A DNA stretch of 64,000 bases from Squalus acanthias (taxonomy: Eukaryota): NCBI GenBank assembly GCA_030390025.1, contig CM059432.1:31994001-32058000 (forward strand), given 5' to 3'. The position numbers were made by a program, and so were the translations under genes. The notes under the pieces are model-generated. The model had not been told where the DNA came from and did not search any database. It saw nothing but the letters and a program-made list of their open reading frames with translations. Shown here one piece after another: positions 46,470-53,793 of the stretch. How positions within the stretch are numbered: position 1 is the stretch's first letter; each line of letters opens with the position of its first letter.

Positions 46470-49400
46470 TTAACTTATCAGATCATCAAACCATGAATTC
46501 CTCTTAATTTGTGGGTTTGAGTTTGTATCTATGCTGGATTCCTCATTAAGTGGATCAAAAAGACTGGCTACATCGTCTGTGTTATTCATCTGACCTGGCA
46601 CAGTTGCAGACACATCATTCGCGAAGACGTCATTTGTGAAAGAGTTGACCTGTGCCTGTTCAAACGTAGATTTGGTCGGTGTTGGTTGTAGTATGCCAAG
46701 GTTGTCCACTATCAAATCCTTGCCTTCTGTCTGTGATATGTTCGTGGTGTCTTGGACGTCTGATCTCATTCCGCTTGCAAAAAACTCATCAGCTCCAAAA
46801 CAGTCTTGTGCAGAAACTGTTTTTTCTGAAAGCAAGCCCACAGCCGCTGGTGGTTTGCTTGGTGAGACAATGTTCCAAAAGCCAAATACATCCTCCATAG
46901 AACCTGCAGTTGGTGCAGAAGGCGGCTCAGATTCCGATGGACTATTGGCACCAGTTGAACTGATTTCTTTCATTGGAGAAACTTTCTTTGACATGGTCGT
47001 GTCTGTGGTTCGTGCCAGTGGCGCTTCAATCACGCCACAAAGATTACCAAAATCATCCAGTGATGGGCTTTGAACATTTTCAACAGAAGTGTTAAAATTC
47101 TCTTCAGTTATTGGTGTGTAATTGTCACATGGTATCAATAGTTCCTTGGATTCAAGAAGTTTGTCAGCCCTTGTGAGAGACTGATTTTCAGGACGCTCAC
47201 TGAGAACACACAGTGTTTCCTCCACTGATTTTGTAGCACCCATACTTGACTTTTGTGGCAGCTCACTTGATCCTAAAGGATCAGTCTGTGGTTGACTTTG
47301 GACATTTTCATCAAAAGTATCAACATTATCTTTGGCTGCTATGATAATACTTCCATTTGGTTTTATCAGTGATCGATCATGTTCAGATGACTTGTTGGCA
47401 TGCACCTGTGACTGGCTTTGGTGATCTACATCAAACAGATCTGAATTGTTGTTGGTTGTGTTTGTACTATCAAAAGCTGGTACTTTGAAAGACCCATTTG
47501 ACTCAGGGGAATTGCTGAAATCTACTTGGGAATGACACAGAAGATTACTAATTCTATCAGAACTGATCTCCTCACTGTTGGAAGAGATCATATTCTCTCT
47601 CGTAATAGGTTGTCTTGATGTGTAGGGATCACTGGAATCTATATTAACATTAGCAGTATTGCCTGCACTTGCTGTTAGTTGACTTGACCTAAATGCATCG
47701 TCAGCCTTGACTTGTTTATTTTGCTGACTCAGATCTGAATTCTGACCATTTAAAATACTTGGAGTGACAACATTTAAACTGTCAAATACAGCAACAGTAT
47801 TCTCTTTTGTTATCTCTGCTGTTTGGTCTGAATCAAAAAGCGCACTGGTATTTGCTTGTGACACCATCACGCTTGGCTTTGCCTGAGGCTGATTTCCATG
47901 ATCACTTCGAGGCATTTCAGATTCTTCAACTGTCTTTTCAGAGTCAGTGGCCAGGGTTGGTGCTTGTTGAGTTATCTGTGGTGCACCATTGATATCCGTT
48001 TGGATTTCCTGTAAATCAGAGATGTCTTTATCTACTTGTACTTTTTCTGAAGATTCTGTTAGAGATTCTTTGGTTTTTAGACTGAATGTTGTTTTTTCTT
48101 TGCTCTTGCTCAATGAGGAATCAAACAGGTTCCCGAAGGCCGTTTGAGAGTTGGGTTTAGCTGCCTTTTGGGTCTCTGGGGTTGTCTTCTTAAAGTCCTT
48201 TTTACTGTTTGAACCAAACAGTTTTGCAAATGGACTTTTGCGGGGGCCTGACGATTTTGTAGGTGGTTTCTTGTTAAAGGACATGTCGTCTTTTTCACTC
48301 TCAGAAGAATTATTGGTGTTAACAAGATCTGGTATCTTAACTGTGTCAGATTCTGAAGCAACAAAAGACTCCCCTACGGTTTGTCCTCCAACAGGTGGAA
48401 TGATAATTTTAACATTTTCTCTTTCTTCCATTATTTCACTGTGACTGTCATCTTGTTTTTGATTGGAAATTTTGGAATTCTCCTCCTGTTCTGTATATTT
48501 CTTTTCAATTTGGTCCATTTTGGAATTCTCTTGTTCCTTATTTCCTGGGTGAGAAGCATCAGATAATTGGAACTGATCTTGATCCGTGTTACAAGGTGTT
48601 TCCTCTGAACTTTCATTCTTTGTACTATGAGTAGGCGACTCAGTGGAGTTGACAGGTATATCTATAGTGCCTGTTGCTTGATCTATGGTAACTGCTGCTG
48701 AGATCTGATGAATGGTAAGCAGCATTGGAATGTCCTCATGTCCCATGTTAATGGATTCTGGTCCCCCTTCATTTTCTCTTTCATAAGGTTTGTCTTCCAA
48801 AGGCCCGTGGTGAGAGCTGGTAGTTGGCCAGTCATGAGTTTCATTGTTGTCATTGTCTTCTTTGGATCTATTTGAGTCTAGAGAATGCGACATTGTAGCT
48901 GTTTCAATTGGTGGATTAAATAGCTGGTTTTCCATTGTTGATTTTGAAATTGATTCTTTCTTCTGCAAAAAATCTATACTTCTCTCTACTGTCCCGTCAG
49001 TTAAAAACGGCTGGACTGAGTTCCCTTGAGGTATTCCTGCTTTTTCTTTCAGTTTGGAACTTTCTATTAATTTCCCTTCATTAGGTTTATTGGCATCATG
49101 AACTTCAAATTTGCATTTCAGTTCTTCGAGACTCTGTTTCCCATTCATTGCATTTGCCCCAGAATTGGGCCTCGGCCTTCCCTGATCTAACTCAAGCTGT
49201 CTGGGGAGAGAAGCTGGCCTTTTATCTGTTTCCCTCTTTTCAAAATTCTCATTGTGCTCAAATTTTTGCTTCAGTTCTCTAAGAGTCTGTTTTCCACCAT
49301 CAGTCTTTGCATGCAAAGAAGATTGGACCTTCTCTTTATCCAAATAAAGGTCTTTAGTCACTGCTCTTTTGTCTGGTTCATTTTTTTCAAGCTGTTCAAA

Positions 49401-50334
49401 TTTTATCTTCTTTCCATTTAATTTCTCTGCAACGTTTAACTCAAATTTTCCCTTCAACTGTTTAAGGCTCCCTCTTTCGGTATCTGCTCTCAGCTGTGAA
49501 GGGAGGATGGGCTTTTCTTTGCCCAAATGAAGATCTCTAAATACAGATTCTGTTCTTTTATCCACTTCATTCTTTACAAAATGTTCCTGTTTAATTTTAT
49601 GTTCATTAGGCCCAGGTGCATCATCCAACTCAAACTTTTTCTTTAATTCCACAAGACTCGGGTTCTTAGTGTCTGTTTTGACTATTGAAAAAGGGCTGGA
49701 TTTTGCTCTACTTAGATGAAGATCGCTAGATATGGAGTCTGCTCTTTTATCTAGTTCATCCGCTGTGTGTTTCATATTCTCTGTGTTTGATTTACCTCTG
49801 TGGTTGGGCTGATGTTCTTCCTTCATTCCTGTTGATTTAACTTTCACTTGGGTAGAAGAGTTGTGCATCTCTTTACACAAATGAAGATCTTGGAGCTGTT
49901 CGGATTCAGAGGGTTTGAGGAGCGGCATACTCCTCCTGTCTAAGATATTGCAAGGGAGTTTATTCTGCTGATTTTCTGGAGGAGGCCAGCTAATTCTGAG
50001 CTTTGCTGTTGGCTCTGACCTTCGACTAACCTCACTGCTGGGCTCACTTTTATCAGCAGGATTGGAAATCCATCTTGCACGTTCCAAGTTGGGTTGAGCG
50101 GCATTGGACACCGGGTCCAATTTCCCTTTCGCAGCGGATAATTTACCAGTTTCCTCGATTTCGGATTTGCATTCAGCTTGGCTGCCACTGGGAAGATTAG
50201 TGCTCTTCGATAGCCAGAGTTCTTTATGAAGATAATGGCCAAAACCGTCATCGTAATTTCCCTTCACCTTGAATGGCCTGTTAGAGTGAGGCTTGCAATA
50301 AAACTCGCCCTGCACCGGCACATAGTTAAGGAGG
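46470..50334 (-). CDS. XIRP1: Large terminal exon: LIM C-half (LLNYVPVQGEFYCKPH..KGNYDDGFGH) plus ~1250-aa low-complexity tail with LRISWPP and C-terminal QIKRN motifs
   Basis: tttcag acceptor at 50335-6, phase 2 matching the previous exon; 3.86-kb open frame; motifs shared with EPLIN/LIMA1 and the XIRP2 LIM isoform. Confidence 0.88.
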
Positions 50335-50444
50335 CTGAAAAAGAAAAAAGATGCCTTGCATCACACCAAGAAATAGTAAACTAATGTGTCATGCAAAGTC
50401 AGTTGGATATAGCGTGTTAATTAGATAATTATAGATAATCCAGG

Positions 50445-53020: not shown

Positions 53021-53337
53021 TGAATCACAGAATCCCCACAGTGCAGATAGAGGCCATTTCGGCCCATCGAGCCTGCACCGACACATATCCCACCCTATCG
53101 CCGTAACCCCATGTATTTAATCCCCCCTAACACTAAGGGTCAATTTATCATAGCCAAATCAACCTAACCCGCACATCTTTGGACTGTGGGAGGAAACTGG
53201 AGCACCCGGAGGAAACCCACGCAGACACGGGGAGAATGTGCAAACACCACACAGACAGTCACCCGAGGCCAGATTCGAACCCAGGTCCTTGGCGCTGTGA
53301 GGCAACAGTGCTAACCACTATGCCACCGTGTTGCCCA
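53021..53337 (-). mobile_element. HE1-type V-SINE
   Basis: Nearly identical to 931-1243. Confidence 0.88.
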
Positions 53338-53662
53338 GCCTAGCTACTGCAGCATGGAATGTCCATTTAATTTATTACTTGGGTGTCATCAACGGTTAAA
53401 CAATAGCATTGTGTCACAAGTCATGTGATTGCACTCCTGACATATACAAGTCCTTTCACTGGGATAATACTGCCCTTTAAGAAATATTTAACATGCGATC
53501 AAATATTTGGTTATGATTTTATATATGTGCATATATAATTATTTCTTTTAAAATCAAGACAAATGATCTCGAAGTTTTATTGATGCAATTTGGAATTAGA
53601 TAGTAAATTAAATAACATTGCAGATCGCCAGTAATAGCGAGTCTGGGTTTAAAATCACTCAC

Positions 53663-53793
53663 CTCAGCTTGTGCCTACAGTGCTTGCACCGGAAGCAGGA
53701 CGGGTGCAAGACAAGTCTGTCCGCTACCAGGCGTTCCATGGAATAAACTGGGTTTTGACATGCAGCGCACAGTTCCTTACTCAGAGACTGGAA
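53663..53793 (-). CDS. XIRP1: LIM-domain exon ([44 protein letters not shown]), probable alternative XIRP1 isoform
   Basis: tgtgttag| ... CTGAG|gtgagt; CxxC..HxxCxxCxxC; near-colinear with LIMD2/LIMA1/XIRP2 LIM N-half; missed by the ORF track. The link to XIRP1 is inferred. Confidence 0.85.

Follow-up and report, generated by a model that had tools for sequence, protein, structure and literature searches.

The human EPLIN class of LIM domains is made up of LIMA1, XIRP2 and LIMD2 in the available text of Koch 2012 (PMC3305314). EPLIN itself, whose gene LIMA1 maps to human 12q13.12, binds actin on both flanks of its LIM domain, and the LIM domain dimerises or binds partners (PMC6136588, available part). 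In mouse Xirp2 (KM273012) exon 8 opens just before the LIM domain, the short form skips the Xin exon (exon 7), and it is the tail of XIRP2, not the LIM domain, that goes to strained actin filaments, according to the accessible part of PMC10259482. In the corresponding parts of the XIRP1 literature, zebrafish xirp1 has one large exon with three intraexonic forms and a LIM form is assigned to xirp2a/b only (Otten 2012, PMC3280289), and human Xin has three intraexonic variants (Eulitz 2013, PMC3810769). In these texts, as far as they are accessible, XIRP1 is a Xin protein encoded by one exon, a LIM form belongs to XIRP2 only, and human has three EPLIN-class genes. Here we analyze a 64,000-nucleotide stretch of the genome of the shark Squalus acanthias (contig CM059432.1 of assembly GCA_030390025.1, positions 31,994,001 to 32,058,000; hereafter the window), in which two exons behind XIRP1, termed A and B, code for a complete LIM domain of the EPLIN class, followed by a long tail, and likely constitute an alternative 3' end of shark XIRP1 that would yield a Xin-less LIM protein.

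Exon A (131 nt) is preceded by TTCTTGTGTTAG and followed by GTGAGT, its AG acceptor being in phase 0 and its donor in phase 2, and exon B is preceded by the pyrimidine tract TTTTTTCTTTTTCAG. The phase-2 join of the two gives a frame of 1331 amino acids (aa) with a single, terminal stop, in which all eight zinc ligands are in place between residues 9 and 60 in the order C-C-H-C-C-C-C-H (C9, C12, H30, C33, C36, C39, C57 and H60). The first methionine is Met19, none preceding C9, and the start of exon A resembles FQSPIKEMC of gar, FQSPAKEMC of pike and FQAPARETC of dog LIMA1. An initial annotation of this DNA had placed two in-phase exons with all eight ligands about 10 kb past the XIRP1 stop on the same strand, opening with an acceptor rather than a start codon, and had recognized the motifs KGNYDDGFGH, LRISWPP and QIKRN; all of this is borne out, the measured distance from the upstream XIRP stop to exon A being 9.8 kb (Table 1). 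Pfam detects LIM on exon A alone (29.2 bits, cut-off 22.9) and nothing on exon B alone. By way of the orthologous sawshark protein, the best solved relatives are LIMD2 (2LZU, E-value 6.5e-21) and EPLIN (2D8Y, E-value 4.8e-20). The two marks of the EPLIN class (PMC3305314), a LIM domain with eight zinc ligands and the motif KGNYDDGFGH...KELW directly after it, are both present, with two of the preceding helix residues altered; the actin bundling or junction scaffolding of the class would apply to the module by analogy.

The remainder of exon B encodes a tail of 1244 aa rich in Ser, Glu, Lys and Asn, with which a search of the ESM Atlas gave no usable match. Since its terminal QIKRNSWFDDLIS bridges the LIMA1/XIRP2 type of end (QIKRNRYYD plus an acidic run) and that of the fish XIRP1-LIM proteins (NNSWMDDLLG), the QIKRN shared with LIMA1 and XIRP2 is, from the sequences compared, likely to reflect true homology. 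The spaced SLx[EQ]LKxKFE motifs of the tail could be candidate short actin-binding helices; an LKQQFEK stretch similar to them is found in XIRP2 N-termini. The reverse-transcriptase-like fragments in the intron between the two exons we take, from their motifs, to belong to a long interspersed nuclear element (LINE).

Table 1. Features of the window discussed in the text (position 1 is the first letter of the window)
Feature	Positions	Strand	Remarks
3' end of the large Xin-repeat exon of XIRP1	63617..64000	-	127 codons; stop at 63619-63617
Weak in-frame (phase 0) candidate internal donor GAG|GTAGTT	63773..63781	-	far from consensus
Predicted poly(A) signals of the Xin form	63511..63593	-	ATTAAA at 63593, AATAAA at 63516
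LIM exon A (FQSLSKELC...HKLS)	53663..53793	-	six zinc ligands; no start codon ahead of the first Cys
Intron, GT-AG, 3.3 kb	50335..53662	-	contains reverse-transcriptase-like fragments
LIM exon B	46470..50334	-	last two zinc ligands, EPLIN motif, WPP motif, tail to the stop (46472-46470)
EPLIN motif core KGNYDDGFGH	50235..50264	-	matches LIMD2 2LZU and EPLIN 2D8Y via the sawshark protein
LRISWPP motif	49980..50000	-	common to LIMA1, XIRP2 short forms and fish XIRP1-LIM; not in short LIMD2 proteins
SLx[EQ]LKxKFE motif, four spaced copies	49100..49670 (approximate)	-	retained in sawshark
KSPFAKLF motif	48216..48239	-	also in sawshark, coelacanth, sterlet, paddlefish and a loach
Terminal QIKRNSWFDDLIS	46473..46511	-	QIKRN part at 46511-46497
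AATAAA, predicted poly(A) signal of the LIM form	46375..46380	-	90 nt past the stop
SLC22 organic-anion-transporter exons	25132-25347, 32900-32986, 34319-34516	+	Pfam Sugar_tr; best solved relative SLC22A6, E-value 9e-13

The window contains only the final 127 codons of the upstream XIRP gene, in its last 384 bases, the rest of the gene lying past the window end. A search with this C-terminus (188 candidates) gave three matches, namely a whale-shark Xin protein (P0002, 89%), a sturgeon Xin protein (P0003, 60%) and a pipefish xirp1-like protein (P0004, 53%). Against the stored proteins it further matched Arapaima XIRP1 (44%) and no XIRP2, although the XIRP2 models compared may lack the true end of the long form. 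The whale-shark protein in turn scores 1395 bits with Arapaima XIRP1 versus 570 with Polypterus XIRP2. As the C-terminus matches only XIRP1-type proteins and its whale-shark counterpart is so much closer to XIRP1, sequence similarity identifies the gene upstream of the LIM exons as XIRP1, not XIRP2. No homologue of a 5' exon was detected between the XIRP stop and exon A by tblastn of the fish 5' segments (best E-value 0.13). At 59752-60066 there are overlapping frames of 104 aa (- strand) and 82 aa (+ strand) with no Pfam match and a weak tblastn E-value of 0.13, which we do not take as an exon.

To place the module we relied on a wide protein search, of whose 1600 matches the best 150 were examined. 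The single-LIM vertebrate-like proteins among these are of the LIMA1, XIRP2 or LIMD2 type or belong to a fourth type, whose named members come from coelacanth, gar, sterlet, paddlefish, Arapaima, a mormyrid, eels, milkfish, characins, cypriniforms (four genera other than that of the zebrafish), pike, cods, wrasse and clownfish. An end resembling W-x-[DS]-D-[LF]-L-[GS] is present in the window and in 17 of 18 proteins of the fourth type, and in none of 17 LIMA1/XIRP2 proteins; an SPF..LF motif is likewise shared by the window, sawshark and 4 of the 18, and is absent from all 17. The tail is of the order of 1000 aa (675-1365 aa) in the fourth type, which accommodates that of the window, versus 272-404 aa in LIMA1 and 295-495 aa in XIRP2. 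The shark module agrees with the LIM tail of bony-fish xirp1 in position, end motif, SPF..LF motif and tail length; the LIM tree does not discriminate. In the coelacanth protein (P0053) the WPP motif block is duplicated and a tail part of about 230 aa is present twice. Certain short teleost models (P0075, P0062, P0200 and P0113, from Anguilla, Aldrovandia, sardine and one more) have XIRP1-type 5' segments and LIM with little or no tail, and may represent a second teleost copy from which both the Xin exon and the tail are gone. Among 35 matches of 118 candidates, in what was a weak search, no tetrapod protein of the fourth type appeared; the nine tetrapod-named matches align over the LIM part alone (47-55% of the query) and belong to the LIMD2 type by name or coverage. 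This fits, albeit weakly, a loss after the split from coelacanths. The initial annotation's statement that mammalian XIRP1 lacks LIM agrees with the papers, and the tetrapod search adds little to it.

In bony fishes several lines of evidence join this module to the 5' exons of XIRP1. The parts preceding LIM in the Xin-less models of wrasse, clownfish, gar and pike match the N-termini of the Xin-bearing Arapaima XIRP1 and of an eel protein (P0090), with E-values of 8e-18 to 7e-8, and among the matches listed they hit neither XIRP2 nor LIMA1; XIRP2-type N-termini, for their part, match XIRP2. In eel, hake and sturgeon models the last 5' segment, SV[KR][DE]RSA.YLS...SK, is followed by the Xin exon; in the cod, loach, pike, gar, wrasse and clownfish LIM models it is followed by the F[QL] that opens the LIM exon. 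Over 239 columns the hake Xin form shares 63% identity with the cod LIM form, and the two diverge after GSPAPP. RefSeq entries named xirp1 isoform X2, X4 or X5 in Triplophysa dalaica and three Gadus species are LIM-bearing models, and the two of them scanned with Pfam proved to have LIM and to lack Xin. In a cluster of 15 proteins from contigs of public sequencing runs, eight have the last 5' segment followed by the whole LIM domain (four of them also a motif from farther 5'), two start at LIM and five enter only exon B, with Xin repeats in none. The eight sit on contigs of 3.6-4.5 kb, too short for a Xin exon plus introns, and we infer that these contigs are spliced fish transcripts. A separate search of sequencing runs with exon B listed 14 rows, none recorded as RNA, and was not used as evidence. 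From these comparisons it is well supported that the fourth type represents an alternative 3' end of XIRP1 in bony fishes, reached by skipping of the Xin exon.

By extension, transcripts in the shark would begin at a single promoter with small 5' exons beyond the window and finish in one of two ways: in the giant Xin exon, which has a stop and a predicted poly(A) signal of its own, or, when this exon is skipped, through a splice into position 53793, in exons A and B. We favor an alternative 3' end because exon A opens with a phase-0 acceptor, has no methionine ahead of the first cysteine, and the module possesses a predicted poly(A) signal of its own. The product would be an EPLIN-like binder of actin filaments, with F-actin bound or sensed by the regions beside the LIM domain, chiefly the tail, and the LIM domain itself serving as a dimerisation or partner site; by analogy with EPLIN and XIRP2, we rate the chance of such a function at about one in two. 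The shark tail gave no score against the XIRP2 tail profile. The initial annotation had allowed the LIM isoform either to skip the Xin exon or to leave it from within; the former is supported by the teleost and gar models and the run-contig proteins and is carried over to the shark, and the latter has gained little ground.

A number of observations weigh against this proposal, and we take them together with the alternatives that they favor. In Squalus acanthias the join between the XIRP1 5' exons and exon A is extrapolated from bony-fish records, which do show such a join; the 5' exons lie outside the window. The RNA origin and the species of the run contigs are likewise our deduction, not part of the record, and some of the teleost Xin-less models could stem from a duplicate gene copy minus the Xin exon. 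Moreover, the module is annotated as a separate gene in sawshark, sawfish, coelacanth, gar (RefSeq), sterlet, milkfish and a mormyrid. Together with the poly(A) signals of the Xin exon itself, these annotations are what one would expect if the LIM and tail exons descend from XIRP1 but now form a separate transcription unit with a first exon of its own in this shark. We consider this unlikely: the sawshark and coelacanth models begin at an internal methionine and thereby lose the first CxxC, as expected of models cut at a missed junction, one gar cluster holds both a truncated and a 5'-extended model, and, as a weak further point, the G+C fraction of 0.33-0.45 over 54000-57500 provides no GC-rich island just upstream of exon A.

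Also unlikely is the alternative that the main product is a protein with both Xin and LIM, made through an internal donor in the Xin exon such as that at 63778. An in-frame GAG|GTAGTT site is indeed available there, models from Arapaima ("XIRP1 isoform X1"), eel and hake contain both Xin and LIM, and intraexonic splicing is known in XIRP1 from the available text of PMC3280289 and PMC3810769. However, no two of the three fused models share a junction, as would be expected of gene-prediction artefacts, and we therefore give such a form little weight; the candidate donor is a poor one, and the run-contig cluster is free of Xin repeats.

A further alternative is that the module is a decaying remnant, with an open frame and a LIM domain and EPLIN helix no longer functional in this shark. 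Against this, 1287 codons are intact, as are the end motif, all eight ligands and both splice junctions. Shuffling exon B 200 times gave no frame longer than 216 codons (mean 112). The sawshark orthologue (the one match among 194 candidates) is 81% identical across the whole of exon B, with an open frame and eight in-frame gaps. Simulated neutral mutation to 80-85% protein identity left no stop-free copy among 500 at each of four rates, with about 9-12 stops expected at this divergence; therefore the frame of the module is under selection, and the two-exon LIM module is a real, conserved feature. On the other side, the last histidine in the window is followed by Ser and, four residues later, by Pro, at positions where all 165 distinct homologous segments have F/Y and L/M/I/F, respectively, and where sawshark keeps the normal residues. 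The elasmobranch branch of the LIM tree is long (0.37-0.42), and the sawfish copy (P0007, XP_051879284.1) is a protein of 146 aa that has lost the KGNYDEGFG core and stops just past the WPP motif, which suggests decay in rays or a broken model. Each of the two replacements, F to S and L to P, takes just one T-to-C change, and a variant or an error of assembly could account for it. Because of these two replacements and the short, decayed sawfish copy, constraint on the module may be relaxing in sharks and rays; outright loss of function in this species we regard as highly improbable.

Phylogenetic analysis of the LIM domain was based on an alignment of 87 columns, with a first tree of 51 rows (a scallop row being skipped) and a second of 49 rows, from which the sawfish and one duplicate were dropped and on which the approximately unbiased (AU) tests were run; rows labelled 'unk' were assigned to groups by motif. 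The LIMA1 (99/97) and XIRP2 (97/82) clades exclude the sharks. The latter join the fish type with a support of 76/43 in the 49-row tree, and with the sawfish included the fish type and the sharks do not form a single group. AU tests reject none of the other placements (LIMD2, p 0.31; LIMA1, p 0.53; XIRP2, p 0.51), and the nearest LIM by tree path is that of LIMD2. On its own, the LIM phylogeny named in the initial annotation as a check does not place the shark sequence. A profile of the fish-type tails lends weak support, giving the window 14.1 bits and sawshark -0.9. The idea of a LIMD2, LIMA1 or XIRP2 copy that has moved and merely happens to sit behind XIRP1 is nevertheless scarcely credible despite these tests, given that LIMD2 has neither the WPP motif nor a long tail, that the LIMA1 and XIRP2 tails match each other's profiles at 23-64 bits with the window outside the top 14 rows for both, and that the end motif and the position behind XIRP1 agree with the fish type. 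Considered directly as an orthologue of LIMA1, the module is without the short tail ending in IKRNRYY and an acidic run; considered as one of LIMD2, it has a WPP motif and a long tail, unlike LIMD2.

The preferred reading, an alternative LIM-encoding end of XIRP1, has consequences for the history of the whole class. We infer that XIRP1 and XIRP2 inherited the two-product layout from their common ancestor and that XIRP1 lost it somewhere on the way to mammals. If the XIRP1 genes of shark, coelacanth, gar, sturgeon and teleosts all keep the LIM form, then both genes go back to a design with two products, and half of XIRP1 has disappeared in mammals. In the tree LIMA1 and XIRP2 are paired (94/78), as are LIMD2 and the XIRP1 type (83/84), and because of these pairs and the cross-matches between LIMA1 and XIRP2 tails a paired origin can be proposed. 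XIRP1 would be the fourth vertebrate EPLIN-class gene, and the Xin cassette exon would have entered an ancestral EPLIN gene before the vertebrate genome doublings, which gave the pairs (XIRP1, LIMD2) and (XIRP2, LIMA1); LIMA1 and LIMD2 would then have lost the Xin exon and mammalian XIRP1 the LIM exons, with fishes still making XIRP1-LIM. As a clade of XIRP1 plus XIRP2 is not rejected by the AU test (p 0.33), we hold this scenario to be an even bet. The human genes lie near the HOXA, B, C and D paralogons, and with these positions the pairing fits a grouping of HOX A/B versus C/D. Such a grouping of the HOX paralogons is given in the accessible text of PMC10972751, and PMC1971062 has nothing on the pairing of paralogons.

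There are also practical implications. The zebrafish xirp1 stop allele sa0046 (Lys271), the probes and the antibodies described in the available text of PMC3280289 concern the large exon or the long forms. A Xin-less xirp1 form would escape these tools, and, if it exists, the zebrafish xirp1 'null' described there would leave it intact. The shark tail of about 1200 aa offers a natural comparison for the strain-sensing tail of XIRP2.

Elsewhere in the window, an SLC22 gene on the + strand converges on the LIM module on the - strand. SLC22A13/14 lie near XIRP1 on human 3p22. A tandem array of 14 copies of a 44-nt unit with 98% identity, derived from a piece of a LINE reverse-transcriptase frame, occupies 58278-58895, and a 69-nt array similar to it is found at 30819-31311. 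At 9616-11001 there is a Gln-rich frame on the + strand, and on the - strand a coiled-coil-like frame of 164 aa (10507-11001) with no Pfam match above cut-off; these frames are possibly a transposon remnant.

Among described systems, the short isoform of XIRP2 in mouse and in zebrafish xirp2a/b is the closest to the architecture proposed here, having 5' exons, a giant Xin exon and two LIM/C-terminal exons (PMC10259482 and PMC3280289, available text), as well as the EPLIN motif, the WPP motif and an IKRN-type end. The shark module differs in its host gene, XIRP1, and in its tail of about 1240 aa versus about 470. Whereas the long form of mouse XIRP2 continues into exon 8 in a different frame (PMC10259482, available text), the shark Xin form stops within its own exon. 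LIMA1/EPLIN (2D8Y) shares the single LIM, the EPLIN motif, the K|FQ start, the WPP motif and QIKRN near the end, but has no Xin exon, a short tail with an acidic end and another locus; LIMD2 (2LZU) has the closest LIM by score and by tree path, yet it is a small protein. Mammalian and zebrafish XIRP1 have the same type of Xin-exon C-terminus and are described without LIM in the accessible texts. In the available text of Grosskurth 2008 (PMC2478706) the word LIM is absent and the C-termini of the anole and pufferfish Xin-alpha predictions were trimmed; these ends may have continued into exons for a LIM domain. A LIM form of XIRP1 was not found described in the literature searched, in which subscription journals were poorly covered. 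The automatic RefSeq models of teleost xirp1 (XP_056598810.1, XP_059914930.1, XP_056452301.1, XP_030219090.1 and XP_030219092.1) have the same type of module with the F[QL] start and the end motif, and differ from the shark in that its LIM has diverged and lacks the methionine seen ahead of the first cysteine in many teleosts. The interpretation offered by the initial annotation is supported, with the qualification that the LIM form is not special to sharks and has in part been annotated already: it is present in fish gene databases as automatic models, and is the known XIRP2 design on the other paralogue.

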